In this document: positions 2,999 through 61,103 of the stretch, piece by piece
Position numbering within the stretch: position 1 is the stretch's first letter
Layout of the letters: the number at the start of each line of letters is the position of its first letter
NCBI GenBank assembly: GCA_016213435.1
Contig: JACRAL010000093.1
Span: 13,670 to 77,669 of the forward strand
Length of the DNA stretch: 64,000 nt
Direction: 5' to 3'
Origin: Bacteroidota bacterium
GTDB taxonomy: Bacteria > Bacteroidota > Bacteroidia > Palsa-948
Notes under the pieces: model-generated
Databases searched by the model: none
The model's input: only the letters and a program-made list of their open reading frames with translations
Told to the model about the DNA's origin: nothing
Translations under genes and position numbers: made by a program

Positions 2999-4534
2999 TT
3001 AGGGATTTAGGGCAGCCGGTTTCGCCTTTTCCCTCACCACCTCCGCAAAAGTTTTATTTTGAATTTTGCTTTCCACCCAACTCAGAAAATCGAACTCCTC
3101 CATTGCAGCTTTCTCCATCGGATATTTTCTAAGTTTCAGCAAGTTTGTTTTTAATTCCTGAAGAGCAGCGCTGCGTTTTTTTTTGCTGATCGCCTTGCCC
3201 ATGATCTGACGCAGGCAATGCATAAATGCCTGTTCCATTTTAAAAAACCGATGACGTGTGGAAAGGAAATGCAGGGCGCTGCGTTTCAATGAATCTAACC
3301 ATTCTTCATCCTTATGCAACTCGTAGTGGATGAGCAGAGAGAGAATATGTGACAATGCTTGCGTATCCTTCCGTAGTTCGCTGGCGGGCTGATCAAGGAT
3401 TTTTCTGAGCCAAAGTAATGCTTCGTTATATCTGCCTGCTCCAAAGAGCATATAGGCGATATTATAATAGAGGTTTTTTTTTGTAATGGCAGTAGCTTCT
3501 TTCAGCAGGTCTTCATTTTCTTCTATCGCTTTTAATGTCGAGAATATTTTTTCAAAATCCCCCATACGCATGAGCACGTTTAATTCATTTATATAGGAAG
3601 ATATCCAGAAGGTGGCTTTGACCTCAGGGGAAGTAATGGGATAAGAGCGTATTTTCTGCAATACTTCCTGCATCTCTCCATACTTATTGCGGTGCGTGGG
3701 TACAATATCTTCTAAAAAGATACCTAATATATTTAACGCGAAAAGATATCTTTTTTCCGGATCTCTCAATTGATGTAAATGAGTTTCTATAAAACTACAT
3801 TGTTCTTTTGCTGTTTTGTATCCTTGAGTGAAATCACGTTTAAAGAAATAGTAAAGAGATCGTATTTCATAGTAATATGTTTTTGCTTCTGCGCAGGATG
3901 CCTGTTGGGGATTGCGCAAAAGAGGATGCCGCATCAGTTTTGCAGCAAGCACTTGTTCCTCTTTTGTACGCATGGATTCCCCTTCCTGAATCTGTTGTAT
4001 TATCTTATGGTGTATGGTTCGATAATCCTTAATGTTGCTTAGTTTTTGCTGTACGGCTCCCATTTCTTCGTTCAGATGAGGTATTTTTAACAGATCCATG
4101 GATGTACAGGGAATTCTTTCCATGGTCAATATTTCGATCAGCAATTCCCAGTGCTCATGATGATATGCACTAAGTTTGGCCTTCTTTAACAGAAGAAGCG
4201 CCTGCGCAGTAAGCCCTTTGCGTAAAAGAATTTCGGCTTTGTTGAGTTGGCTTCGCAGGTTTATATCCGTACTGCTGTGGTAGTTTTCCAAACTCCGGAG
4301 GATATTATTGTAAAGACGGCCATTGGCGACAGAAAGCCGCTTCAAAAACTTTTGTCCATGGCAGACGCTGCGTATAGCATCCTCATTATACCTGTCTTGT
4401 TTTTCTATCGCGTCATATAATTTCAGATAGCTTTTATCTCCGCCTTTTAAAGAGGAAAACATTTTGAAATACTTCTTTTCTGCCATAGCGAGCGAATGGA
4501 TCAACTCGAAAAGCGCAGTTCCTGTCTTTTTCAT
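2999..4534 (-). CDS. Hypothetical all-helical (TPR-like) cytoplasmic protein, paralog A of 59181..60737
   Basis: 511-aa ORF with no signal peptide. About 65-70 percent identical over the first 150 aa to the ORF at 59181..60737. No catalytic motif recognised. Confidence 0.6.
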   Translation of the reverse strand: MKKTGTALFELIHSLAMAEKKYFKMFSSLKGGDKSYLKLYDAIEKQDRYNEDAIRSVCHGQKFLKRLSVANGRLYNNILRSLENYHSSTDINLRSQLNKAEILLRKGLTAQALLLLKKAKLSAYHHEHWELLIEILTMERIPCTSMDLLKIPHLNEEMGAVQQKLSNIKDYRTIHHKIIQQIQEGESMRTKEEQVLAAKLMRHPLLRNPQQASCAEAKTYYYEIRSLYYFFKRDFTQGYKTAKEQCSFIETHLHQLRDPEKRYLFALNILGIFLEDIVPTHRNKYGEMQEVLQKIRSYPITSPEVKATFWISSYINELNVLMRMGDFEKIFSTLKAIEENEDLLKEATAITKKNLYYNIAYMLFGAGRYNEALLWLRKILDQPASELRKDTQALSHILSLLIHYELHKDEEWLDSLKRSALHFLSTRHRFFKMEQAFMHCLRQIMGKAISKKKRSAALQELKTNLLKLRKYPMEKAAMEEFDFLSWVESKIQNKTFAEVVREKAKPAALNP

Positions 4535-4615
4535 AACTGTGATAATTATGGATCGGAAAGGTATGCATAATTCTGCTTATTCGTAGCAGAAAAGAAGATC
4601 ATGGTGGATAAGATT

Positions 4616-4682
4616 CAAAATCATATTGGTGCAATAGTGCGAAACGTTATTTTGTATCCATCACTTCTTTGACCGAACTTTG
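4616..4682. promoter_or_regulatory. Conserved intergenic motif pair (AAAATCATATTGGT ... TTTGACCGAACTTT) shared with 60826..60890
   Basis: Two motifs with the same 38-39 bp spacing appear in both paralogous divergent intergenic regions. Confidence 0.3.
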
Positions 4683-4700
4683 GTATATAAAGAAAACAGC

Positions 4701-4760
4701 CACCCCTTCCCCTAAAGGGCGAGGACAAAAACAATAGCCCCCTTTAGGGCGGGGGGAAAA
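4701..4760. repeat. Two GC-rich palindromes (CCCCTTCCCCTAAAGGG... / CCCCCTTTAGGGCGGGGGG) inserted in the intergenic region
   Basis: About 60 bp present here and absent from the otherwise collinear paralogous intergenic region at 60890..60911. Confidence 0.5.
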
Positions 4761-4773
4761 CAACAACAACACT

Positions 4774-4944
4774 ATGATATCACTCGGAATTGAATACTCT
4801 CCTCCGCCCACCAAAAAGGAAATCCGCGAATGGAAAAAATGGAGAAAGGAGATGAACAGGATAGAGGAAATGTACATGCCGAAAGCTACTCCCCACAATA
4901 AGAAGAACATTAAAAAGAAAGACAATAAAAAACCAGGAAAATGA
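4774..4944 (+). CDS. Small basic protein (56 aa), paralog of 60912..61103
   Basis: Hand translation gives MISLGIEYSPPPTKKEIREWKKWRKEMNRIEEMYMPKATPHNKKNIKKKDNKKPGK. The N-terminal 30 aa match MISLGLELPSPPPSAKEIREWHKWRKEMN of the other copy. Its TGA stop overlaps the ATG at 4941 (ATGA). It is absent from the ORF track only because it is under 60 aa. Confidence 0.55.
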   Translation: MISLGIEYSPPPTKKEIREWKKWRKEMNRIEEMYMPKATPHNKKNIKKKDNKKPGK

Positions 4945-5378
4945 AAAAACTTTTAGCGCTTATCGCCACCATCATCTTATTTGCCATCGTTCTTTCTTCT
5001 TGCAAAAGTCATGAACTTTGTCCTGCTTATGGAAAAACGGATATGAAAATAATAACAGCGGGAAATACCCCATTTTCCACTGAAAACACATCAACTCAAT
5101 GTGTAAGCTCATTAACTCCGGGTGCAAGCGCATTAACTCCGGGTGCGAGACCTTCAACTCCGGGTGCAAGCGCATTAACTCCGAATGCGAGACCTTTAAC
5201 TCCGGGTGCAAGCGCATCAACTCCGAATGCGAGACCTTTAACTCCGGGTGCAAGCTCATCAACTCCGGGTGCAAGCGCATTAACTCCATGTGAAAACTCA
5301 TCAACTCCAGGTGCAAGCTCATCAACTCAATCTATAGTTAAAAGAAAGAATTCATCATTTACCATTCATAATTTATAA
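4941..5378 (+). CDS. Lipoprotein with tandem heptapeptide (LTPGASA/LTPNARP) repeats
   Basis: Signal peptide plus lipobox (VLSSC). The coding sequence contains ten or more 21-bp repeats. Confidence 0.6.
   Translation: MKKLLALIATIILFAIVLSSCKSHELCPAYGKTDMKIITAGNTPFSTENTSTQCVSSLTPGASALTPGARPSTPGASALTPNARPLTPGASASTPNARPLTPGASSSTPGASALTPCENSSTPGASSSTQSIVKRKNSSFTIHNL
5108..5330. repeat. 21-bp tandem repeat (TTAACTCCGGGTGCAAGCGCA-like), about 10 units, inside the lipoprotein CDS
   Basis: Direct reading of the sequence; the units stay in frame. Confidence 0.8.
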
Positions 5379-5390
5379 TTTACTGCACCA

Positions 5391-6647
5391 ATGACAACAA
5401 TCAAAAGAATTTACCATGTAGCTGACTCCACGATGCTGGATTCAGCCGATGTGTTTCATGCACTTTATGTAGTGGATGAAGCCGATTATTCGGGTTTCAG
5501 CAGCGCCATCTTTACGGCAAACTTTAAAACAGATTTTCTTGCCGAAATTAATGCTGCCCGAGCCGTAGTGCAAGATATGATCAACATAGATGAGATGGCA
5601 GAAGAAACCGCTTTGGTAACCGCAAAAACTAAAGAATGTGCCGACTATTTTATTTCCGCAAAATTTTTTATTGAAAAAGCATTCCCCGATAATCAGGCGG
5701 TGTGGAACCAGTTTGGATACAATGATTACCGAAAAGCAAGCCGATCGCAAAGCAAGATGATCGGCTTTATGGAAATGTTTTTTATAGTTGCAACAAAATA
5801 TACTGCCCAGCTGAACGCTCAGGGCTTCACCGCTGCAAAAATAGCGCAGATACAAACGCTGGAAACCCAGCTCCGCACCGAGCAATTAGATCAGGAAACA
5901 TTTAAAAAGAACCGCCCTCTGTGGACTCAGGACAGGATCATTATTTTAAACAAACCCTATCAAAGGATGGTAGATATTCACAATGCTTCCAAAACCATTT
6001 ATAAAAATAATTTCGCAAAGCTGCATCAATATGCCTTGCCGCACAGTGGAACAACTCCTCCGCCTGCACCAGCCGTTATAAGCATGGTTACCGACCAAAC
6101 TACTTTGCAGGCAATCATCCTCAAAATAGCCGGCAATGCTTTGGCAACAGACACCGAGCAATTCAAAATTGCTTTTGGCGATGGCAACGAAGGGATTGGC
6201 ACTTTAGCAAACGGAATCCTTGCCATCTATCCGCACGATTACAACATACCCGGTGCCGATGCATCGGGCATCTATACAATAACCATCACTCCCGTTACCG
6301 CAGGCGCTTTATCCCTCATGGGTGTTTTGCAGTTTGATAACTGCAAGTTTAAAGATGACGTTACTATCCCCGCTGCGGTGCAGGCATCGGGTATTCAGAT
6401 GCCAAATAATCATATAACAAATTTCAATATGCAGCCTGCTTCTTACAGCAAGCTCACTTCGCTTGTTCTTTTTAATAATGATATGACTGCGAGTAACGTA
6501 AACTTTAATCTGATCGGCTTAGATGACAGCGGCTTGCCTAATGGCTTTGCCAACTTTGGCGGTGGAACAAATGCGGCACCCACAGGAGCAGGAATTACAG
6601 CAAAGAATAATTTAATTGCAAAGGGATGGACGGTAATAACGAATTAA
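5391..6647 (+). CDS. Hypothetical protein
   Basis: 418-aa ORF with no signal peptide and no recognised motif. Confidence 0.45.
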   Translation: MTTIKRIYHVADSTMLDSADVFHALYVVDEADYSGFSSAIFTANFKTDFLAEINAARAVVQDMINIDEMAEETALVTAKTKECADYFISAKFFIEKAFPDNQAVWNQFGYNDYRKASRSQSKMIGFMEMFFIVATKYTAQLNAQGFTAAKIAQIQTLETQLRTEQLDQETFKKNRPLWTQDRIIILNKPYQRMVDIHNASKTIYKNNFAKLHQYALPHSGTTPPPAPAVISMVTDQTTLQAIILKIAGNALATDTEQFKIAFGDGNEGIGTLANGILAIYPHDYNIPGADASGIYTITITPVTAGALSLMGVLQFDNCKFKDDVTIPAAVQASGIQMPNNHITNFNMQPASYSKLTSLVLFNNDMTASNVNFNLIGLDDSGLPNGFANFGGGTNAAPTGAGITAKNNLIAKGWTVITN

Positions 6648-13773: not shown

Positions 13774-15741
13774 CTATTTTCTGAATGATGGTGCGTAATA
13801 ATCATACTTGCTGTCAGCAAAAGAAGATACGGTGAAGTCGTCAAGGTAAAAAGAATTCTTGTTTTGATTCCATAGATATATTCTTACTTCATCATCGGGA
13901 TAAGCGGAGGAGGGCAATTCAAATGTGGCAAAAACTTCCTGCCACCTCACCCCATGCCCCTCTCCCACAGGAGAGGGGTGTTTCACAAATTGCTGAAGAG
14001 GTTTCCCCTGCCATTCTCTTTTCCCATTCGGATCGCCAACTTCCATTACAAGTTGTGCATAAATCTCCTCTTTCGAATAAATCCATGCATTAATATTTAC
14101 ACATCCTGAATTATCGCGGAAAAGTTTTTTAACGGTGGTTTTTAGCGTAATACAGAATTCATCTTTTGGTTCGATGTTCAGAGCATATTTTCCGGAATGA
14201 GAATAAGATGTATCGGCTTTGGCAGAATCCCAACTCAGTCCCTTTCCTGCTCCCAAAGAAGAAGAGCGATCAAATCCAACATGAGAATAAAAAATCGTAT
14301 CGCGCTTGCATGAATTAATTTTTCCAAACATGGTTATTTGCGAATTGAAATGCTTTTCATCGTATAAAATACAGGGATATTTGCGCTTTATCAATTCAGG
14401 GATTTCATATGGACTTCTGAAGTTTGACCAACCGTAAATAAAATAAGAGGTTTTGCATGAATCTACCTTCTTCATCATATCTGATACAAATAAAGAATCA
14501 TCTCCGGAAAAAAAATTAAAAGGAACATTAACATTCCATCGTTTAAAATAAAAATCCATAATGTCCTTGCCGGATGAATTCAAAACCGTTGCAACATTTT
14601 CTTTGCCGTATTTATTTTGAAGATTGATTACCGATTGATTGATCTCCTTAAACACGCCAAAGCACTCCCGTTTATAAAATTTCTCTTCCACAATGGTGCT
14701 GAATAATAAAATAATTCCCCACGAAACAAAAAGAATATTATTTAATTTCTTATGCCTCTCCTTAAAGAATGAGAAAAGAAATAACAGCAAAAACGGAAAA
14801 GAAAAAAGAAGCGTAGAATATTGCAAAACAGCATTCGCATTCACGGAATAATAATACCCTGCGACAAAGGGAAGAAAGAACCAAGCAACGCAGATGAACT
14901 GAAATTTTGAAAATGAAATATCCGGATGATAGACAAGCATCGACAAAAGAAAAAGTGTCGCCACCGTAATTACAACAAGTGATGAATCATTGAGTCCGTA
15001 CAAAATATATTTCCAGAGATACTCTTTTTCTGGTTTTGCAAGCCATTCACCCACTCCTCCCATGCTGAACTGATGAACAGAAACGAAAAAGTGAGGAAGA
15101 AAAAGAAAAATAGCAATCCCCCCTGAAAGCAAATAAGGTTTCCATGTTTCTTTTTTCAAAAACAGAAATCCGGTAACGGCAACGATCATGACAAAAAAGA
15201 AAGAAAAATAATGGGTATACATGCAAAGTGCAGTTGCAATTCCATACAAAATAGATTTCAGGTAAATTCTTCTTCCCGATCCAAATAAAAGATTTGTCCA
15301 GAACCAAACCGAAAGCAAAGAAAAAAATAATCCAAAAGAGTAAGGACGTGCCAATTGGCTGTAAAGGATCGGAAAATTAAGAATGGCAAGAGAGAGAGAA
15401 GAAAAACAGGCCGTGGCAAAACCAAACCATTTCTTTGCAACGAAATACAATAACACAACACTGCCAATTCCCGCGATAACAAATGGCAGCCGGATAGCCG
15501 CTTCTGATAATCCAAACAGTTTTGTCCATCCCCAAATAAAGACTTGTGCAAATGCAGGATGGGTATCGCGATCCCGCACACCTTGCACTATGAGTTCAGA
15601 AAAAGACGAATAGTTAAGACGCAGAAATGCTCCCAACTCATCATGCGTAAAAGACCAATTCCAATAATTCCACAACCTCAAAATAGAGGCGATGAAAATA
15701 ATAACGACAAAGACTATCCTTTCTTCAGAAAACTTTTTCAC
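13774..15741 (-). CDS. GT-C-fold membrane glycosyltransferase (PMT/ArnT-like family)
   Basis: 655 aa with about 11 N-terminal transmembrane helices and a soluble C-terminal domain. Contains an in-frame GC-rich palindrome at 13945-13979. Confidence 0.5.
   Translation of the reverse strand: MKKFSEERIVFVVIIFIASILRLWNYWNWSFTHDELGAFLRLNYSSFSELIVQGVRDRDTHPAFAQVFIWGWTKLFGLSEAAIRLPFVIAGIGSVVLLYFVAKKWFGFATACFSSLSLAILNFPILYSQLARPYSFGLFFSLLSVWFWTNLLFGSGRRIYLKSILYGIATALCMYTHYFSFFFVMIVAVTGFLFLKKETWKPYLLSGGIAIFLFLPHFFVSVHQFSMGGVGEWLAKPEKEYLWKYILYGLNDSSLVVITVATLFLLSMLVYHPDISFSKFQFICVAWFFLPFVAGYYYSVNANAVLQYSTLLFSFPFLLLFLFSFFKERHKKLNNILFVSWGIILLFSTIVEEKFYKRECFGVFKEINQSVINLQNKYGKENVATVLNSSGKDIMDFYFKRWNVNVPFNFFSGDDSLFVSDMMKKVDSCKTSYFIYGWSNFRSPYEIPELIKRKYPCILYDEKHFNSQITMFGKINSCKRDTIFYSHVGFDRSSSLGAGKGLSWDSAKADTSYSHSGKYALNIEPKDEFCITLKTTVKKLFRDNSGCVNINAWIYSKEEIYAQLVMEVGDPNGKREWQGKPLQQFVKHPSPVGEGHGVRWQEVFATFELPSSAYPDDEVRIYLWNQNKNSFYLDDFTVSSFADSKYDYYAPSFRK
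13945..13979. repeat. GC-rich palindromic element copy (CCTCACCCCATGCCCCTCTCCCACAGGAGAGGGG), in frame inside a CDS
   Basis: Sequence shared with 22050, 22170, 23091 and 46431. Encodes HPSPVGEGHGVRW in the host ORF. Confidence 0.7.
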
Positions 15742-31629: not shown

Positions 31630-32382
31630 TTAAAGTTGACGTAGTAAAATCACAGTACATGCTAATAGGTTGAGAGCTTTCCAATGAATTTTATTTGTTT
31701 CAAAACGCACCAAAAGTGCCTTGAATCCATCCATCCAAGCATTTGTTCTCTCTATGACAAATCTGCATTTGTAGAGCAAATCGTCAAAAATATATTCAGC
31801 AGGATTCCCGTTTCTTTTATTCTGGTCAATATTGGATATGATGTCATTTTGGTAGCAATAATTGCGAAACTCTTTTGTGTCAAAACCCGAATCAGCATTT
31901 AAAAACAGTCCCTCTGTAGGAATTGTTGAATCGCGTATGTCCTGCAACATGGTATCAACGGTCTTCTCTAAATTATAGGCATCATTATGATTGCCCTCTA
32001 CCGCTTCGCTGCAAGCCAATGGCGTGCCTTGATTGTCAGCTATGATAAGCATATTGCTTGTCTTGCATTTTTTTCTTCCTTGATATGCTACTGCTTCTCC
32101 TCCACGTTTGGAAGGGGTATGCGTACCGTCCAATTGTATGCTGGATAAATCAAGTATGCCCTTATGCTTTTCTAATGTCTTGTTCCAAACCATTTCCCAA
32201 CTACCATCTTTACACCATTTCTGAAAATGGTAGTAAACACTTTGCCATTTGTATCTGGTTCTAAAAAATTGCTTCATGGGTAATTCTCTCCATTGACATC
32301 CTGTTTTTAACCTGAATAGTATCGCTTCTACTACGTGTACTTGTTTTACTTTGGTGTTGCCTAAATGATTGCCAAATTTCAA
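31630..32382 (-). mobile_element. IS5-family (DDE) transposase gene, possibly 5'-truncated
   Basis: 250 aa containing LKTGCQWRELP and the C-terminal DDE region. It begins with TTG and lacks the usual ~25-aa N-terminal segment. No terminal inverted repeats were identified. Confidence 0.75.
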
Positions 32383-32559: not shown

Positions 32560-32637
32560 CCGAACAAATAAAGGTACAGTTCCTATAAAACCTTGAACTG
32601 TTCTTGTTCAACTTTGAGTAGTTCCTGTACAACCTTA
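32560..32637. repeat. About 80-bp leader sequence, direct repeat of 39679..39757
   Basis: CCGAACAAATAAAGGTAC(A/C)GTTCCTAT(A/G)AAACCTTGAACTGTTCTTGTTCAACTTTGAGTAG... is about 95 percent identical in both copies. Confidence 0.8.
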
Positions 32638-33170
32638 AACTGCCCTTATGAAACCTTGCACTTCTTTGATGCAACATTGAGCAACTTCTGTGCAACCTTG
32701 AGCAACTCCTGTGTAACCTTAAACAGCCCCTACGCAACATTGATCAGTTCCTGTGTAACCTTAAGCAGACCCTACACAACCTTGAGCAGTTCCTGCGTAA
32801 CCTTGAGCAGCTCCTGTGTAATCTTGCACTGTCTTGATGTAATGTTGCGGAGGAGCAAATACACATGTGGAAGTAGCAAGCACATGTGTGGAAGGAGCTG
32901 ACACATGTGTGGAAGGAGTAAGCACACATGCGGAAGTAGTAGGCACATGTGTGTAATGAACGAGTACATGTGTGAAAGAAGCGAGTACACATGTGGAAGG
33001 AGCAAGCACATGTGTGGAAGAAGCTGGTACATGTGTGGAAGAAGCGAATACACATGTGGAAGTAGCAGTCATATGTGTTGAAGTAGCGAGTACACATGTG
33101 GAAGAAGACGGAACATGTGTTTTTGCACTAAAAACACATGTGTATGCAATAAATACACATACCTTAGCGT
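32592..33170. repeat. 21-bp minisatellite of about 27 units
   Basis: Strict 21-bp periodicity. The consensus switches near 32845 from ACCTTGAGCAGNTCCTGTGTA to ACATGTGTGGAAGNAGCNAGC. No single frame stays open across the array. Confidence 0.85.
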
Positions 33171-36061: not shown

Positions 36062-36159
36062 TGCATTAGTTTTAAGAAAAGAATAGATGAATGTAAGAAA
36101 TTAAGTGATTACTCAGCAGGAAAGATAAAACAAGGTTGATTAGAGATAGCGTAATTTTG

Positions 36160-36203
36160 TCCGAACAGTTCTCTCCGATGTTCATCGGAGAGACACGGAT
36201 GGG
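36160..36203. repeat. 42-bp direct repeat containing the perfect palindrome TCTCTCCGATG-TT-CATCGGAGAGA
   Basis: Matches 39603..39646 with about 5 mismatches. Together the two copies bracket the restriction-modification module. Confidence 0.8.
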
Positions 36204-39557: not shown

Positions 39558-39602
39558 ATATACACTTTATGAGGGAGAAATTTGGATGGTTTATAAATTT
39601 TG

Positions 39603-39646
39603 CCCGAGCAGTTCTCTCCGATGTTCATCGGAGAGACTCTGATGGG
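39603..39646. repeat. Second copy of the 42-bp palindrome-containing direct repeat
   Basis: See 36160..36203. Confidence 0.8.
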
Positions 39647-39678: not shown

Positions 39679-39776
39679 CCCGAACAAATAAAGGTACCGT
39701 TCCTATGAAACCTTGAACTGTTCTTGTTCAACTTTGAGTAGCTCCTGTGTAACCTTAAGCAGACACTATGCACACC
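39679..39776. repeat. Second copy of the minisatellite leader plus about 4 repeat units
   Basis: See 32560..32637. Overlaps the 3' end of the cyclase gene. Confidence 0.75.
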
Positions 39777-46863: not shown

Positions 46864-46949
46864 ACTGTTAATAATCCTGTTAATGTGTAAATCTTAGTAT
46901 AGTTGCAAAAATAGATTTTTTATCTAACTTTGTGTACTATTTTACAGGC

Positions 46950-47918
46950 ATGACCAAGATTAAGTATCGTTTCGACATCCATTCGCTGACTTACGAAAAA
47001 GTAGGCTTCAGTTGGAAGAAGATTGCGTTGAAGCTGCTTTCCTCTCTTGCTATAGGAATTGTTTTTGCCGGTGTTATCGTTTTTATCGCTTTCACGTATT
47101 TCGATTCTCCTAAAGAAAAAATTCAAAAGCGTGAAATCCAATGGATGACCTATCAGTATGATATCCTCAATAAAAAACTCGGACAGGTACAAACCGTACT
47201 TGGAGATATTCAGAAGCGTGATGATAATATTTACCGGATGATATTTGAGGCTGAACCCATTGCCGATGAAATCCGAAAAGCAGGATTTGGAGGGGTGGAC
47301 AGGTATAAAGAACTCGAAGGATTTGAAAACTCAAAACTCATTGTTGAAAGCACGAAGAAACTTGATCAGATATCCAAACAATTATATGTGCAGTCCAAGT
47401 CCTTTGACGATGTGGTAAAAATGGCAAAGAACAAAGAAGTGATGCTTGCATGCATTCCTGCTATTCAGCCGATTTCCGGAAAAGATCTGATGCACGAGCC
47501 ATCAGGATTCGGAATGAGAACCCATCCTATTTACAAGACATTGAAATTTCATGCCGGAATGGACTTTACTGCCAATATTGGCACTAAAATTTACGCAACA
47601 GGTGATGGCGTGATTGTAACGGCTGAATATGTATCCGGGTATGGAAATCATGTGGTAATTAATCATGGATATGGATATGAAACACTTTACGGACACATGG
47701 TAAAAATAGTTGCACGTGTTGGACAGAAAATAAAACGAGGCGAACTAATCGGATACGTAGGGAATACAGGACTTTCTGCCGGACCTCATGTGCATTATGA
47801 AGTTCATAAAAACGGCAATCCGATTAACCCAGTTAACTTCTACTACAATGATCTTACTCCTGCCGAGTACAAGCAGATGATCGAAGCATCATCACATCCT
47901 TCGCAGTCGTTCGACTAA
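46950..47918 (+). CDS. M23-family (LytM-like) metallopeptidase
   Basis: HAGMDF...GNHVVINHG...GPHVHYEV motifs and an N-terminal transmembrane segment. The track ORF begins at a GTG at 46932. Confidence 0.8.
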   Translation: MTKIKYRFDIHSLTYEKVGFSWKKIALKLLSSLAIGIVFAGVIVFIAFTYFDSPKEKIQKREIQWMTYQYDILNKKLGQVQTVLGDIQKRDDNIYRMIFEAEPIADEIRKAGFGGVDRYKELEGFENSKLIVESTKKLDQISKQLYVQSKSFDDVVKMAKNKEVMLACIPAIQPISGKDLMHEPSGFGMRTHPIYKTLKFHAGMDFTANIGTKIYATGDGVIVTAEYVSGYGNHVVINHGYGYETLYGHMVKIVARVGQKIKRGELIGYVGNTGLSAGPHVHYEVHKNGNPINPVNFYYNDLTPAEYKQMIEASSHPSQSFD

Positions 47919-50591: not shown

Positions 50592-50776
50592 AAAAAATAT
50601 TAGACATATTAGTCCCTGTCCTTGCAATAGTACTTATTATACTTTTTTATGCTGTTATAATAGATATTTCTAATAGAGCACTAACTGTCGAAAAATCAAT
50701 ATTTGTGATTGCGGTTTTAATAATAAATTTTAGCTTATATCGTTTAAATAAAAAAATAAAAAAGAATGATCAGTAG
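50588..50776 (+). CDS. Small two-helix membrane protein
   Basis: 62 aa. Its start overlaps the upstream stop (ATGA) and its own 3' end overlaps the next gene by 11 nt. Confidence 0.35.
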   Translation: MKKILDILVPVLAIVLIILFYAVIIDISNRALTVEKSIFVIAVLIINFSLYRLNKKIKKNDQ

Positions 50777-52106
50777 TGTATCAATTGCTTCATTAAAAAA
50801 AGCTGTTGATATATCCTTAAGACATTACTCCATTGTTATTCTACTACTTTCTTTTTTCTCCTTTACTGATCTTTCATTTGCGCAAACCGTTCAGCCAAAG
50901 ACAGATGATTTGATCGAACGCATAATGAAGGCGCATCCGGAAAAATTTAAAAATATTCTAGAGTCCCCTCAGCAGTATCGTGTGCAAATTATTTACACGC
51001 AGATTAAACGCGATAAAAATAACCTCCCCCATTTCAGTCAACACACATATCATCTAAATAAGTACCATTATTTTTACCCTGCCAGTCTTGTTAAATTACC
51101 TGTGGCTGCTTTATCCCTTGAAAAAATAAACCGATTGAAAGCAGACTCTTTAAAATATTACCCGAAACTCTCTGCCTTATTCAAAGAAACAAGAATGAAG
51201 ATTGACAGCACATATTATTGTCAATCTGTTGTTGAAAAAGACAGCACCTCTGAGACAGGGTTTCCTTCCATCGCGCACTACATAAAAAAAATGATGCTGG
51301 TCAGCGATAACGATGCCTACACCCATCTTTACGAATTTTTAGGACAGGAATATGCAAACAATCGTTTATGGGAAAAAGGATACACGAGTGCCCGTATCAT
51401 TCACCGTCTCAAAATGTGCGATACCCTGCAGAACCGATACACCAATCCGATCCTTTTTCTGCATTCTGGCGGAGACACTATTTACAACCAGCGCATGCAG
51501 TATAATCCGCAACAATTAAAAAAATTTCTGGGAGTGGTAAAAGTCGGGAAGAAAAATATTGAAAATGGAAAATTAGTCGCCAAACCCAAAGAGTTTACCT
51601 ACAACAACTATTTATGCCTGCAGGATATTAACGATGTATTACTCTCCATCATGTTTCCTCAGGCAGCAATAGAAAAAAAACGGTTTCAGCTCATTACGGA
51701 TGATTATCATTTTCTTCGGAAATACATGTCAATGTACCCGACAGAATGCAATGCTCCGAAATACGACAGCGCAAATTATCATGACTGCTATAAAAAATAT
51801 CTTTTCTATGGAAATTCGAAAGATTCCATAACTGATAAGAACATCCGTATTTTTAATGTAGTGGGACAGTCGTATGGTTTTCTTTCGGATGTTGCATACA
51901 TAGCAGATTTTCAAAACAAGATCGAGTTTGCAATTTCGGCAGTGATCTATGTAAACAGCGATGGGATTCTCAATGATGGGAAATACGAGTACGATACCAT
52001 CGGCTTTCCTTTTTTAGCCAACCTCAGCAGAGCAATTTATGAATACGAAAAAAAGCGTAGCCGCTCTACTGTTCCTGATCTCAGTGAGTTTAAAATAGAT
52101 TATTAA
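50766..52106 (+). CDS. Serine hydrolase related to class A beta-lactamases
   Basis: 446 aa with SxxK (ASLVK) and SDN (VSDND) motifs. Confidence 0.5.
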   Translation: MISSVSIASLKKAVDISLRHYSIVILLLSFFSFTDLSFAQTVQPKTDDLIERIMKAHPEKFKNILESPQQYRVQIIYTQIKRDKNNLPHFSQHTYHLNKYHYFYPASLVKLPVAALSLEKINRLKADSLKYYPKLSALFKETRMKIDSTYYCQSVVEKDSTSETGFPSIAHYIKKMMLVSDNDAYTHLYEFLGQEYANNRLWEKGYTSARIIHRLKMCDTLQNRYTNPILFLHSGGDTIYNQRMQYNPQQLKKFLGVVKVGKKNIENGKLVAKPKEFTYNNYLCLQDINDVLLSIMFPQAAIEKKRFQLITDDYHFLRKYMSMYPTECNAPKYDSANYHDCYKKYLFYGNSKDSITDKNIRIFNVVGQSYGFLSDVAYIADFQNKIEFAISAVIYVNSDGILNDGKYEYDTIGFPFLANLSRAIYEYEKKRSRSTVPDLSEFKIDY

Positions 52107-52296: not shown

Positions 52297-52635
52297 ATGC
52301 CTCCCTACAAAGAAAAAGAACCCGAAAAAATTTTCTACACCATCGGTGAGGTGGCGAAGATCTTTAAAGTGAATACTTCGCTTGTACGCTTTTGGGAAAA
52401 AGAATTTGATATCCTAAAGCCAAAAAAAAATAAAAAGGGCAACCGCCTGTTTACCAAACAGGACTTAGATAATCTCCACATCATTTACCACCTCGTAAAA
52501 GAGCGCGGCTTTAAGTTGGATGGCGCCAAGAAAAAACTCAAGCAAAGCCACGATGAAGTGGTGAATTCTCTTGAAATGGTAAAGGCGCTGAAAAATATCA
52601 GGAGCTTTTTGGTGGAGATGAAGGAATCACTCTGA
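52297..52635 (+). CDS. MerR-family transcriptional regulator
   Basis: 112 aa with an N-terminal HTH (IGEVAKIFKVNTSLVRFWEKEF). Confidence 0.8.
   Translation: MPPYKEKEPEKIFYTIGEVAKIFKVNTSLVRFWEKEFDILKPKKNKKGNRLFTKQDLDNLHIIYHLVKERGFKLDGAKKKLKQSHDEVVNSLEMVKALKNIRSFLVEMKESL
52564..52635. repeat. 72-bp direct repeat, copy 1 (3' end of merR)
   Basis: Copy 2 lies at about 53240..53312 with 9 mismatches. Both encode NS(L/V)EMVKALKNI(R/K)SFLVEMKESL followed by a stop. Confidence 0.8.
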
Positions 52636-52640
52636 TTGCT

Positions 52641-53240
52641 TTACAGTATTGTCGTTATAATTGTCTTGTCCGCCTTAGCTTGTTTATATTCTTCGTTCAT
52701 TTCTGAAGTCATATTTGGACCATAATAAATTCCTTTTGATTGAATAAAACCGTCATAAATGATTTTGTCCTTGAACGGGATAATTGCCGTATGGCATAAT
52801 GCCGGAAAGCGAGAAAAAAATTCATCAAATCTGTCTCCCAATGCTTTTACTGCATATATTTTATTGTCTGCTGTGTCAATAAAAACTGCATGTCTAGCAA
52901 GACATTTAAAAATCACGAAATTGCTTTTTATTTTCTTTTTGAATCCTTCAAGGATTTTAATTTGATCAAGCGTCAAAGAGTCAACCCTGCTTTTAAGATA
53001 CTCTTCCAATAGCTCCATATTTTCAAATAATTTTTCCCGACATTTAAATTTGATTTGAGTACCAAGTTTAATGAACTTATTAACATCTGTACCTGCAGGA
53101 ATAATTTTTTCATTTTGTCCGACAAAATATAAGAGAGCAAGATGTGTTTTTAAGAATTCCTGATATTCATCTCTGTCAAGTGTCATTATTGGTATCTGAA
53201 AAGTGTAAAAACAAATATAGAAAAATTGACGGGATAGCAA
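52641..53240 (-). CDS. Hypothetical protein carried on an insertion
   Basis: 199-aa ORF; the likely start is MTLDRDEY. Flanked by the 72-bp direct repeats. Confidence 0.5.
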   Translation of the reverse strand: MLSRQFFYICFYTFQIPIMTLDRDEYQEFLKTHLALLYFVGQNEKIIPAGTDVNKFIKLGTQIKFKCREKLFENMELLEEYLKSRVDSLTLDQIKILEGFKKKIKSNFVIFKCLARHAVFIDTADNKIYAVKALGDRFDEFFSRFPALCHTAIIPFKDKIIYDGFIQSKGIYYGPNMTSEMNEEYKQAKADKTIITTIL

Positions 53241-53312
53241 ATTCTGTTGAGATGGTAAAGGCGCTGAAGAATATCAAGAGTTTTTTGGTGGAGATGAAGG
53301 AGTCGCTCTGAT
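53240..53312. repeat. 72-bp direct repeat, copy 2 (orphan merR 3' end)
   Basis: See 52564..52635. Coordinates here are uncertain by about 1 nt. Confidence 0.75.
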
Positions 53313-53367
53313 TGTTTGCTAAATTAGTTTAAATGATTTTCTTGCCGATTTAACTATCGAAGAATTT

Positions 53368-53604
53368 TCATGACGCAAAACGTTTTTCTAATTCGATTTT
53401 TAGCTCTTTCATCATATCTCCAAAAACCAAGCAATCTTTATGAAATTTCCTTTCATAAAAAGTACCTTCATCACTTATCCAATAGCATAGTACATTTTCT
53501 CCTTTAATTTCCCTAACAAGCATTTTTGCACCTCCAGATGAAAGTTTGACTTCTTCATTAGGCAAGAAATTTCTATCGGTTGATTTTAATTTTGAATTTT
53601 CCAT
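53368..53604 (-). CDS. DUF2158 (YodC-like) small protein
   Basis: 78 aa with the KLSSGGAKMLV...CYW pattern typical of YodC-like proteins. Confidence 0.5.
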   Translation of the reverse strand: MENSKLKSTDRNFLPNEEVKLSSGGAKMLVREIKGENVLCYWISDEGTFYERKFHKDCLVFGDMMKELKIELEKRFAS

Positions 53605-53636: not shown

Positions 53637-55130
53637 TTACAAATCCTCCTCAATATCATTCATCTTAGAACCGCGGATGATGCTGTTACCTCCACCCAAA
53701 TCAGATTCCGAGAATGCGATGGTAGAACCGGAAGGTTCTACAAATTTTGCAAACTGGCTGATGAACAACAGATTTTCAGAACCCACACGTCCGTTACGAT
53801 GCTTTGCAATAATGATTTCGGCAAGTCCTTCGGTGGAATTTCCATTTTCATCCTGGGTAATTCCCGCCATGTCCGCACGGTAAATGAACATAACCAAGTC
53901 AGCATCCTGCTCAATAGCTCCCGATTCACGCAGATCGGATAACTGAGGGCGCTTGCTTCCTCCACGCTGCTCCACCGCACGGCTCATTTGGGAAAGTGCG
54001 ATAATGGGAACGTCTAATTCTTTTGCAATCGCTTTCAGCGAACGGGAAATGTTGCTCACTTCCTGCTCGCGCGAAAATTTTCCTTCCTGCCCCGAAACCA
54101 TCAGCTGGAGATAATCCACTATGAGTAATGAAATATTATGCTGTGCTTTCAACCGCCTTGCCTTGGCGCGGAATTCAAAAATTGAAAGTGCGGGAGTATC
54201 GTCAATATATATAGGAGCCGTGGTTAGTTTTCCTATTTTGGCATTCAACTGATGAAACTCATCATCGCGTAATTCGCCTTTTCTTAATTTATCGGCAGGC
54301 AGTTCCGTTTCTGCGGCAACCAAACGACTCACTAACTGAACAGAAGTCATCTCAAGCGAGAAGATCGCAACGCCTTTATCATGATCCACCGCAGCATTTC
54401 GCGCAACGCTTCCTATAAACGCAGACTTACCTGTACCGGGACGAGCAGCAAGAATAATAAGGTCGGATTTTTGCCAGCCACCTGTGATCGCATCCAAACG
54501 CGTGAAACCGCTTGGCACTCCGCCAAATTTCTGATCGCGCGCTGCTTCGATCTGCTGGATGGTTTGCCCAAGGATCGGACGAATGTGTTCGAAGTCCCTG
54601 CGGATATTTGTTTGACTGATGGAAAATAAATTCTGTTCGGCTCTGTTCAGCAATTCAAAAACATCGGAAGTGTCTTCATATGCATGCTGAAGCGTGTCGG
54701 TAGAAATTCGGATAAGTTCGCGCTGAAGATATTTTTCAAGAACAATGCGCCCGTGCATTTCCACGTTTGCTGCAGAAGCAACACGGTTGGTCAATTGCGT
54801 AATGTAATATGCACCTCCGGCAATTTCCAGTTCACCTGTTTTTTTCAGTTCCTGAGTGACAGTGAGAATGTCTACCGGTTCGGATTTAGCAAACAAACTT
54901 TGTATGGCAGTAAATATATGCTTGTGCGCATCTTTATAAAACGCTTCAGGAGTTAACATGGCAACCACGTTGGTGAGCGCATCTTTATCAAGCATGAGCG
55001 CGCCAAGTACGGCTTCTTCCAGATCCACTGCCTGCGGAGGAAGTTTACCAAGTTCAAGTAATTGTGCAGGAGTTATAGTGGTCCTAGTTCTTTTGCGAGT
55101 GTCTTTGTTGTCTTTTGAGCGCGAGTCCAT
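53637..55130 (-). CDS. dnaB: Replicative DNA helicase
   Basis: 497 aa with Walker A (ARPGTGKS), RecA-like motifs, and an N-terminal DnaB domain. Confidence 0.95.
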   Translation of the reverse strand: MDSRSKDNKDTRKRTRTTITPAQLLELGKLPPQAVDLEEAVLGALMLDKDALTNVVAMLTPEAFYKDAHKHIFTAIQSLFAKSEPVDILTVTQELKKTGELEIAGGAYYITQLTNRVASAANVEMHGRIVLEKYLQRELIRISTDTLQHAYEDTSDVFELLNRAEQNLFSISQTNIRRDFEHIRPILGQTIQQIEAARDQKFGGVPSGFTRLDAITGGWQKSDLIILAARPGTGKSAFIGSVARNAAVDHDKGVAIFSLEMTSVQLVSRLVAAETELPADKLRKGELRDDEFHQLNAKIGKLTTAPIYIDDTPALSIFEFRAKARRLKAQHNISLLIVDYLQLMVSGQEGKFSREQEVSNISRSLKAIAKELDVPIIALSQMSRAVEQRGGSKRPQLSDLRESGAIEQDADLVMFIYRADMAGITQDENGNSTEGLAEIIIAKHRNGRVGSENLLFISQFAKFVEPSGSTIAFSESDLGGGNSIIRGSKMNDIEEDL

Positions 55131-59180: not shown

Positions 59181-60737
59181 TTATACTTTTTTTAAAGCCC
59201 CTCGAGAGATTCTAAATAGTTGTTTTGACTTCTCCTTCACCACATCCTCAAAAGTTTTATGCTGAATTTTGCTTTCCACCCAGCTTAGAAAGTCAAACTC
59301 CTCCATCGCTACTTTCTCCAATGGGTCTTTCATCAGTTTCAATAAGGTGGTTTTTAATACATGGAAAGCAAGAATGCGTTCATGTTTGTCAATAGACACT
59401 TTCATAACCTGATGCAGGCAATTCATCAAAGCTTTTTCCAATTTAAAAAGTCGGTTTTGTTTGGAAAGGAGATATAGAGTGCTTCGTTGTAATGATTTCA
59501 GCAGTTGAGCATCCTTATGTATTTCGTAGTGGATGAGCAGGAAAAGAATACGTGCCGCTGCGTACACATCATGCCGGAATGCGCCTTCGGGCTGTTCAAC
59601 TATTTTTTGGGTCCAGAATAATGCTTTGTTATAGCTGCCTGCACCAAAAAGCATATAGGCGATATTATAATAAAGAATAATTGGACTAACAGCAGGATCT
59701 TTGTTCAGAAAATCATTATTTGCTTCTATCGCTTTTATAACCGGAAATACTTTTTCAAAATCCCCCGTCCGCATGAACGCGTTTAATTCATTTATATAGG
59801 AATTTGACCAGTACGAGATTTTGAGTGAGTGTGAGGCAATGGGATAGGCACGTATTTTATTCAGCAATATCTGCATTTCTTCATATAAATTATGATTGAC
59901 AGATAAAAGATATCCTATGAAAATCACTGACATGTTCAGTCCGAAGAGATATCTCTTTCCATAGTCTCTTAATTGATGCGAGTGTGTTTCTATAAATTTA
60001 CATTGCTCTTTTGAGAGTTCATATCCTCGAATAAAGTCCCGCTTAAAAAAATAATAAAGAGACCACACTTCATAATAAGTTGCTTTTGCCTCTGCGCAGG
60101 ATGCCTGCTTTAAATTGCGTAAAAGAGGATGCCGCATAAGCTTTGTAATAAACACTTGTTCCTTTTTTGTGCGCATGGGTTCCGCTTCATGGATTTTCCG
60201 TGTTATCTTATAGTGTAGCGTTCGGTAGTCATCAATGTTGTTTAGCTTTTTGAGTACAGTTTTTATTTCTTCATTCAGATGAGACATTTTTAACAGCTCC
60301 TGTGCCGAATAAGGAATTCTTTCCATAATTAAAATTTCCATCAATAGTTCCCAGTGTTCATGCTGATATGCAATGCTCTTGGCTGCCCTTAATAGCTTCA
60401 GTGCCTGGTCAGTAAGCCCTTTGTCTAAAAGAATCCCGGCTTTGCTGATCTGGCTGCGCAGGTTTATATCCGTGCTGTTGTGGTAATTTTCCAAGCTGCG
60501 GAGAATACTATTATGAAGGCGCCTTTTAGCAACAGAAAGATGCCGCAGGAACTTTTGCCCGCGGCAGGTGTTGCGGATAGCGCCCTCATCATACCTGTTT
60601 TGTTTTTCTATAACATCATATAATACCAGATAGTTCTTGTCTCCACCTTTCAGCGAAGACAACATTTTGAAATACTTCTTTTCTGCCATGCTGAGGGAAT
60701 GGATCAAGTCAAAAATTGAAGTGCTTGTTTTTTTCAT
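59181..60737 (-). CDS. Hypothetical all-helical protein, paralog B of 2999..4534
   Basis: 518 aa, collinear with paralog A. Confidence 0.6.
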   Translation of the reverse strand: MKKTSTSIFDLIHSLSMAEKKYFKMLSSLKGGDKNYLVLYDVIEKQNRYDEGAIRNTCRGQKFLRHLSVAKRRLHNSILRSLENYHNSTDINLRSQISKAGILLDKGLTDQALKLLRAAKSIAYQHEHWELLMEILIMERIPYSAQELLKMSHLNEEIKTVLKKLNNIDDYRTLHYKITRKIHEAEPMRTKKEQVFITKLMRHPLLRNLKQASCAEAKATYYEVWSLYYFFKRDFIRGYELSKEQCKFIETHSHQLRDYGKRYLFGLNMSVIFIGYLLSVNHNLYEEMQILLNKIRAYPIASHSLKISYWSNSYINELNAFMRTGDFEKVFPVIKAIEANNDFLNKDPAVSPIILYYNIAYMLFGAGSYNKALFWTQKIVEQPEGAFRHDVYAAARILFLLIHYEIHKDAQLLKSLQRSTLYLLSKQNRLFKLEKALMNCLHQVMKVSIDKHERILAFHVLKTTLLKLMKDPLEKVAMEEFDFLSWVESKIQHKTFEDVVKEKSKQLFRISRGALKKV

Positions 60738-60825
60738 AATAGTCAGTTATCATGAATATAAAGTGGAAAGGTAGATATAATTCATCTTATAAATTAAAGA
60801 AATAGTGTTTTTTCTGATAAAATTA

Positions 60826-60890
60826 AAAATCATATTGGTTAGATACAACAAAAAGTTATTGTTGCGGCATTGTTTTTTTGACTGACCTTT
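60826..60890. promoter_or_regulatory. Conserved intergenic motif pair (AAAAATCATATTGGT ... TTTGACTGACCTTT)
   Basis: See 4616..4682. Confidence 0.3.
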
Positions 60891-60911
60891 ACTTTATTAA
60901 ATCAAACCTAT

Positions 60912-61103
60912 ATGATATCACTCGGACTTGAGCTTCCCTCTCCTCCACCCTCAGCAAAAGAAATCCGCGAATGGCACAAATGGAGAAAGGAGATGAACCT
61001 GTTGATGGAAGAAACCGCCTCGCGCAAAAAAAAAGCCCACCCCAAAAGGGTAAAAAACACAAAACAAAAATCAATAAATAAAACCAATCATGAAAACATT
61101 TAA
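60912..61103 (+). CDS. Small basic protein (63 aa), paralog of 4774..4944
   Basis: MISLGLELPSPPPSAKEIREWHKWRKEMN... Its 3' end overlaps the start of 61090 by 14 nt. Confidence 0.55.
   Translation: MISLGLELPSPPPSAKEIREWHKWRKEMNLLMEETASRKKKAHPKRVKNTKQKSINKTNHENI

Follow-up and report, generated by a model that had tools for sequence, protein, structure and literature searches.

A low-GC accessory gene bounded by a live and a displaced merR end in the merR–dnaB gap of a Bacteroidota genome

Many variable and defence hotspots of bacterial chromosomes have no recognisable integration machinery. Cis-mobilizable elements (CIMEs) are decayed forms of integrative elements that insert at gene 3′ ends and carry a replacement end, and such elements can accrete in tandem (review PMC5704250). 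The tandem islands at ssrA (PMC3146451) use the end of an RNA gene in a comparable way. It is also documented that DNA can integrate through homology at one of its ends and through an illegitimate join at the other (PMC3240628), and in the orphan C-terminal modules of rhs and cdiA (PMC3967940) an old gene end is left stranded downstream of the new one. Features of each of these, and of integron gene cassettes, are met in a locus of a metagenome-assembled Bacteroidota bacterium (Palsa-948; GCA_016213435.1, contig JACRAL010000093.1, 13,670–77,669 of the forward strand, a stretch of 64,000 nt termed here the window). An intact merR-family gene is there followed by a small gene of low GC content on the opposite strand, p181, and then by a second, displaced copy of merR's own 3′ end, all within the gap between merR and the convergent gene dnaB. 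The pattern is a known one, that of a hotspot insertion with a duplicated target-gene end at its boundaries, of which this is a new example; it is unusual in its very small size, in having no mobility gene and in that two allelic ends are preserved. The origin tentatively preferred below is an import by recombination with merR homology as its anchor and an irregular join on the second side, its chances being put at a little short of even.

The features of the locus are the following.

50766–52106, plus strand: beta-lactamase-like gene (PF13354, E 2.4e-10), the left synteny anchor
52297–52635, plus strand: intact merR-family regulator gene, 112 aa (PF13411, E 1.6e-21, 76.6 bits against a cut-off of 21.6)
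52564–52641, plus strand: repeat copy 1, the live merR end, 23 codons, stop and 6 nt (repeat search)
52641–53186, minus strand: cargo gene p181, 181 aa, uncharacterised family (ATG at 53186)
53187–53239, minus strand: upstream region of p181, 53 bp, with an abrupt junction with copy 2 at its end (reading of the sequence)
53240–53317, plus strand: repeat copy 2, the displaced merR 3′ end, 23 codons, stop and 6 nt (repeat search)
53368–53604, minus strand: small DUF2158 gene, 78 aa, the second low-GC cargo gene of the gap (PF09926, 25.1 bits against a cut-off of 22.3)
53637–55130, minus strand: dnaB, replicative helicase, the right synteny anchor (PF03796, E 8.7e-102)

That the 3′ end of merR recurs downstream had been noticed in an earlier reading of the letters (the sequence-only reading), and the recurrence is real: 70 of 78 nt (90%) are identical between 52564–52641 and 53240–53317, a direct repeat with a start-to-start spacing of 676, and a 32-nt core pattern has these two matches only in the window and none in any of 100 shuffles. 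Some of the earlier figures need revision, the spacer between the copies being 598 bp instead of 605, with p181 as its one gene, and the differences numbering 8 in the 78 nt instead of 9. Seven of them fall in the 72 coding nt, five synonymous and two non-synonymous, the latter the L/V and R/K changes correctly given before; the Pfam matches likewise confirm the DUF2158 gene and dnaB beyond the insert. Similarity begins sharply at 53239/53240 (…GGGATAGCA/AATTCT… vs …GAAGTGGTG/AATTCT…, the stroke marking the junction), while copy 1 simply runs on into merR. Copy 2 lies in frame inside a 55-aa open reading frame (ORF) at 53144–53311 whose start is antisense to the start region of p181. Transcription of merR converges on that of both p181 and dnaB. 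The merR-family gene is a core gene conserved across Bacteroidota, with 1844 homologues at E<=1e-40, the closest of which align over the full length to residue 112; a mercury-responsive MerR proper was considered for the target gene and rejected, no NCBIfam equivalog cut-off being reached.

Between copy 1 and copy 2 pS is 0.37 and pN 0.036, a pN/pS of 0.10 from few sites, and five or more synonymous changes among seven have a chance probability of 0.004 (binomial) or 0.02 (simulation keeping the mix of transitions and transversions). Window merR and its orthologues in related genomes differ to a similar degree (pS 0.41–0.55, pN 0.024). The peptide of copy 2, NSVEMVKALKNIKSFLVEMKESL, is exactly that of the MerR tail in two relatives (L090 and L091) and in the closest MerR homologues; V at position 92 is found in all 28 close MerR homologues and K at 102 in most, the L and R of copy 1 being derived. 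Substitutions present in no relative number 16 in the first 264 positions of the live gene and 3 in the 72 of copy 1 (gene positions 271, 276 and 302), a density in copy 1 close to that of the rest of window merR (about 6% of sites). Copy 2 has none, where 4.4 would be expected (P 0.013). By the synonymous bias, most of the divergence arose under coding constraint, and because the copies are as diverged as orthologues, copy 2 encodes the relatives' tail peptide and its lineage substitutions are nil against 4.4 expected, that constraint acted before the ends were joined. Copy 2, by the same pattern, did not share the history of the live merR beside it, so that the two ends derive from two lineages, and, since copy 2 is both without lineage substitutions and undecayed, the junction is recent. 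The synonymous bias noted earlier is thus statistically real, without being evidence for selection on both copies in place: it reflects orthologous merR alleles that diverged as working genes and not selection on a remnant, and copy 2 is best taken as a non-functional orphan end from another merR lineage. Purifying selection on both copies where they now stand, as had been proposed, is contradicted by the orthologue-level pS, by the lack of lineage substitutions in copy 2 and by the decay of comparable remnants described next. As to the direction of import, that copy 2 lacks the history of the live gene would fit the arrival of a whole merR and the arrival of an insert carrying copy 2 alike.

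A screen for second merR tails, with each locus's own tail as query, covered 90 merR loci by DNA and 93 by peptide, and only the window and the closest reference genome (L008, MerR 82% identical) were positive. Weak matches about 1.4 kb downstream in Bacteroidales merR loci are no remnants, since they fall in a coiled-coil gene that is conserved there. The two displaced ends of L008 are these.

L008 ~5636–5690, same orientation, downstream of merR: remnant 1, …KRVKSFLKEKKEQI…
L008 ~6243–6345, same orientation, downstream of merR: remnant 2, KRKQNKEEVINSVEMTK…VF*VEMKVQL*

Small minus-strand genes lie between them. Both are decayed (68% and 83% identity) with a stop or frameshift, one with an internal stop, for which reason displaced ends in this clade, where the displacement recurs, are not maintained. 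The left boundary of the displaced end is at about 72 nt in the window and at about 60 and 105 nt in L008, with no common motif beside them, in a comparison of three cases of which two are decayed. The L008 units contain no recombinase gene and have no Rfam match. A separate feature of L008, directly after the merR stop (5362–5556), is a GC-rich segment of about 195 bp with 22-nt inverted repeats (AACACAGATAA… / …TTATCTGTGTT) and no Rfam match, which resembles a miniature inverted-repeat element.

The condition of the gap in closer relatives, all known from metagenomes, is pertinent. Convergent merR and dnaB are kept there, with amino-acid identities of 93–95% for MerR and 97% for DnaB and with 87–89% nucleotide identity of the flanks (for dnaB against that of L091, 97% amino-acid and 87% nucleotide), and in L090 and L092 the 3′ end of the beta-lactamase-like gene likewise precedes merR. 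What lies in the gap differs: a 191-aa gene in L090, recovered as the only contig matching a degenerate DNA pattern of the MerR tail among JGI metagenomes, a 114-aa gene in L091 and L097, and in L098 and L099 a 312-aa RAMA-domain gene with weak PADLOC candidate-system matches. All are on the minus strand and end 0–32 nt after the merR stop, the distance between the stops being 0–35 nt over related genomes as a whole, and none of these five relatives with the same flanks has p181 or a second merR end. The DUF2158 gene, absent from the gap in L090 and L091, was probably an earlier occupant of it in the window. The gap is thus a variable gene slot, a gene-swapping hotspot in this lineage. As to the uninterrupted locus whose search had been proposed, these relatives give loci free of p181 with a single merR end, but their gaps hold other genes, and no truly empty merR–dnaB site, nor a precursor merR–DUF2158–dnaB site, was found. 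In the reference genomes, one per species, 0 of 80 merR loci have dnaB, DUF2158 or p181 within 5 kb, and synteny is consequently lost at that distance. An exact-protein look-up of the window MerR returned no record, and no other contig with an identical MerR is on record.

The cargo looks foreign on composition, with a GC content of 31.7% for p181 and 30.8% for the DUF2158 gene against 40.2% for the window, both in the lowest 1% or so of windows. This composition, together with the relatives lacking p181 and second end alike, bears out the earlier view of an insertion at the merR 3′ end that left merR intact with a full end and a second end displaced. The length of 199 aa earlier ascribed to the gene comes from the longest possible ORF, which begins at a TTG further upstream; 130 homologues were found, and nearly all of those listed (120) have 180–182 aa, while the deposited protein has 181. 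It combines a helical N-terminal domain with an OB-like beta-barrel, and no defence or toxin-antitoxin model of PADLOC, Pfam or NCBIfam was matched, nor was there a clear structural match, in keeping with the earlier description of a gene of no known function. In its upstream region TATATTTG on the minus strand (53219–53212) matches the Bacteroidetes −7 motif TAnnTTTG and, by the published Bacteroides consensus, is a candidate promoter element for p181; a scan for sigma-70 promoters and terminators, which does not model Bacteroidetes promoters, gave nothing above chance.

Homologues of p181 are widespread in Bacteroidota and stand in unrelated contexts, beside Hypoth_Ymh and an MmeI-like enzyme, near AbiJ and GmrSD, beside an acetyltransferase or beside a methyltransferase. 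DNA similarity among these loci is restricted to the coding sequence, with no common flank and none resembling merR, and a donor arrangement in which p181 adjoins merR was present in 0 of 9 p181 loci, a small sample with most contigs short. A phage origin was rejected, there being no match in IMG/VR or among GenBank phages. Distant full-length relatives (24–27% identity) are carried by megaplasmids of six haloarchaeal genera and by two of Ruminococcus albus (hits H1–H8; for example NZ_KX906370.1 140602–141153 and NC_014824.1 122081–122617). A 302-aa protein of Halorubrum lacusprofundi, adjoining a UPF0175/PIN pair, has the p181-like region as its N-terminal part; that of R. albus is divided between two ORFs beside an IS66 element. 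On four contigs from different samples (L001–L004) the p181 homologue is preceded, at a distance of about 300 bp, by a 40-bp tandem repeat in 5–6 copies (e.g. L001 3504–3720), and a Hypoth_Ymh gene and an MmeI-like restriction-modification gene come downstream. Attention is also drawn to a 6.67-Mb genome (L005/L006; ENA ERZ26165376 ctg355699_104x_c) with a co-oriented array (e.g. L006 1862–7953) of genes for AbiJ-like, UDG, TPM phosphatase, p181-homologous and other proteins, each with a conserved repeat of about 210 bp in the intergenic stretch after it, beginning …CAGCCAACATGGGGTTTGG and ending …CGTTGGCTG, a layout like that of a cassette array, yet with no single-hairpin fold. A 1590-bp unit of TPM and p181 genes is present twice in that genome, at 99.9% identity and about 360 kb apart; given this duplication within a repeat-punctuated array, the p181 family apparently does move as a small unit.

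How the window came by its arrangement is a matter for graded opinion. In the preferred reading, the variable slot bounded by the core genes merR and dnaB, which converge on it, would have received the 598-bp low-GC segment with p181 by recombination for which merR was the homologous anchor. The second junction, 53239/53240, would have been irregular, the upstream end of p181 being joined to the merR of the other parent at its codon 90. The outcome would be one complete merR ending in copy 1, the orphaned 72-nt end with its stop (copy 2), the older DUF2158 gene and dnaB. No dedicated recombinase would be required, but only exchange between related genomes through their conserved flanks, with a second join that is occasionally irregular. 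Homology-facilitated illegitimate recombination fits because merR continues on one side and the junction is abrupt on the other, boundaries vary, the alleles are of two lineages and cargo is cleanly replaced in relatives. The scar itself has the form to be looked for, with copy 1 continuous with merR and the 53239/53240 join sharp.

Several considerations weigh against it. Joins of this kind are rare, and three displaced ends at one gene in two genomes are more than a rare accident would give; a dedicated site-directed process could explain the recurrence at merR better. The 9 p181 loci offered no donor in which p181 and merR are neighbours, and in several relatives cargo genes end only a few bases from the merR stop, which looks too exact for joining at random. 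The junctions are, moreover, those of metagenome assemblies. To our knowledge no natural hotspot with three homology-facilitated illegitimate scars at one gene has been described.

The described case (PMC3240628) has in common with the window homology at a conserved gene at one end and an irregular join at the other, the dispensability of a dedicated recombinase and junctions that differ per event, whereas it is known as a rare event in laboratory transformation and conjugation, and here a donor arrangement is wanting. The orphan rhs and cdiA modules (PMC3967940) are a second parallel, in that a new end and a linked downstream gene arrive by recombination in the conserved part and the old end is orphaned downstream. 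Their ends, however, encode different toxin domains and variety is the point, whereas here the tail of MerR is nearly the same, and p181 is on the opposite strand with no known role in immunity.

A different explanation, doubtful though by no means negligible, is that of a miniature site-specific element, or a decayed one. A recombinase of the tyrosine or serine type, whose gene lies at another place in the genome or on a helper element since lost, would have the merR 3′ end as its attachment site, and small cargo units with a site like the merR end would integrate, regenerate the gene end and stack, in the manner of CIMEs and accretion or of integrons. The insert is indeed bounded by direct repeats with the target gene intact, the phenomenon recurs at merR in the same orientation and always reaches the stop codon (once in the window, twice in L008), cargo genes in relatives lie within 0–35 nt of the merR stop, and the TPM and p181 unit occurs twice in the repeat-punctuated array of the 6.67-Mb genome. 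Recurrence at one gene and tight abutment to its stop are better explained in this way than by illegitimate joining. Against it, a recombinase is found neither in the 598-bp insert nor among the 30 ORFs scanned of the 64-kb window, where no tyrosine recombinase and no intI were met and where an IS4/5 transposase 20 kb away is the only mobile gene found. The units are of 0.3–0.6 kb only, their left boundaries (~60, 72 and 105 nt) have no common adjoining motif, the five relatives with other cargo have no second end and p181 homologues no merR-like flank. Nor does the 78-nt repeat have a significant or consistent secondary structure: an attC-type hairpin is absent, the two copies, folded on either strand, giving z-scores of −2.0, 0.0, +1.2 and +1.5 with no structure in common, and Rfam shows no known RNA in the region.

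An integrative element directed at the gene end had been suggested from the sequence alone; its direct repeats and intact target stand, while the absence of a recombinase, the varying boundaries and the lack of a common flank leave it unproven, and the integrase of matching specificity that was to be looked for is in neither the insert nor the 30 window ORFs. Comparison with CIMEs and 3′-end integrative elements (PMC5704250) points both ways: an insert bounded by a repeat of the target 3′ end, an intact target, serial displaced ends as in L008 and foreign low-GC cargo are alike, but here there is no integrase in or near the insert, the units hold one or two small genes within 0.3–0.6 kb, and the repeat is long (78 nt) and only 90% identical with a left boundary that varies. 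At ssrA (PMC3146451), too, one conserved gene end is reused as an entry, with a variable strain-specific region and several end repeats downstream. Those islands, however, extend over kilobases, and many include an integration module with a serine recombinase; insertion there is at a fixed position with a short repeat, and the target is an RNA gene where merR is protein-coding. A transposon or insertion sequence was rejected, the repeat being 78 nt and 90% identical and the insert without terminal inverted repeats or transposase. We know of no related integrase-bearing element for a site at the merR end.

More ambitious, and improbable, is the proposal of an integron-like gene-capture system, as yet undescribed, that docks at the merR 3′ end and in which single-gene units with merR tails would be inserted and excised by a remote recombinase or by host RecA acting on the 78-bp homology. 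A small array of accessory genes would in this way be assembled and rearranged in the merR–dnaB gap, with the coding end of a housekeeping regulator as the recombination site. As with integron gene cassettes, a single small gene moves as a unit beside a fixed site, and elsewhere a p181 homologue is in a repeat-punctuated array. Unlike cassettes, there is no attC-type hairpin and no intI here, p181 has its own upstream region and faces merR, and the repeat is the coding sequence of a neighbour. An integron cassette in the ordinary sense was rejected on the same grounds, namely the missing hairpin and integrase gene and the convergence of p181 with merR. The discovery of a dedicated recombinase would make the locus a gene-capture site of a new kind; failing that, it is an ordinary scar of recombination.

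Partial duplication of merR in place, with both copies kept by purifying selection or with copy 2 serving as the tail of the 55-aa ORF, would be suited by the bias of five synonymous differences in seven (pN/pS 0.10) and by the in-frame position of copy 2 in that ORF (53144–53311). It is nevertheless very improbable, as an old duplicate should share the history of merR or decay faster, where copy 2 is without lineage substitutions (P 0.013); moreover, the copies are as far apart as orthologues from different species, a stop or frameshift interrupts the displaced ends of L008, and the ORF begins in antisense of the p181 start region. Equally hard to credit is a chimeric assembly of two coexisting strains joined via their common merR end, for, although the window is from a metagenome-assembled genome, the two copies resemble alleles from separate strains and no other contig with the exact MerR is on record, joining through a common repeat yields one copy and not two, the 53239/53240 junction has no common sequence to mislead an assembler, and an artefact would not give the similar, decayed displaced ends of the independent L008 assembly.

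With homology-anchored import as the reading retained, the locus offers a dated example of a single accessory gene entering a chromosome at a hotspot flanked by core genes and with no mobile-element genes, in which both the imported and the resident end are preserved, showing the part of two lineages in a recent event. The scars in the window and in L008 are among the few clues to how hotspots devoid of machinery are filled. The locus also flags an uncharacterised 181-aa family, helical domain with OB-like barrel, that is widespread in Bacteroidota, with distant relatives on haloarchaeal and Ruminococcus megaplasmids, and that behaves as a mobile unit of a single gene.

Upstream of merR there are further differences. 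A Peptidase_M23 gene is directly upstream of merR in L008, L093 and L103. The window's M23 gene (46932–47918) is about 4.3 kb from merR, with an amino-acid permease gene, a 418-aa gene of no family, a 62-aa ORF and the beta-lactamase-like gene between. Since M23 adjoins merR in those three genomes and not in the window, the upstream side too has been remodelled here.

Other repeats in the window are of several kinds. Two long arrays of 21-bp tandem repeats, with at least 10–11 copies each, are at 5039–5349 and 32560–33165, the second adjoining the gene for the IS4/5-family DDE transposase (31630–32382); a 91-nt piece nearby recurs at 39680–39770 with 89% identity. Six copies, of about 36 nt, of a GC-rich palindromic element (…CACCCC…CCCTCTCC…GGAGAGGGG) are at 13943, 14231, 22048, 22169, 23089 and 46429 and resemble intergenic hairpins of the repetitive extragenic palindromic (REP) type. 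Two paralogous genes of about 511–518 aa (2999–4857 and 59181–60998), 73% identical over 300 nt and one with weak TPR matches, are each preceded by a 61-nt upstream segment, 87% identical between them, that is possibly a common leader or regulatory element. Finally, a 51-nt intergenic repeat at 36153–36203 and 39596–39646, 92% identical and with a perfect hairpin (TCTCTCCGATG…CATCGGAGAGA), is downstream of two large minus-strand genes.

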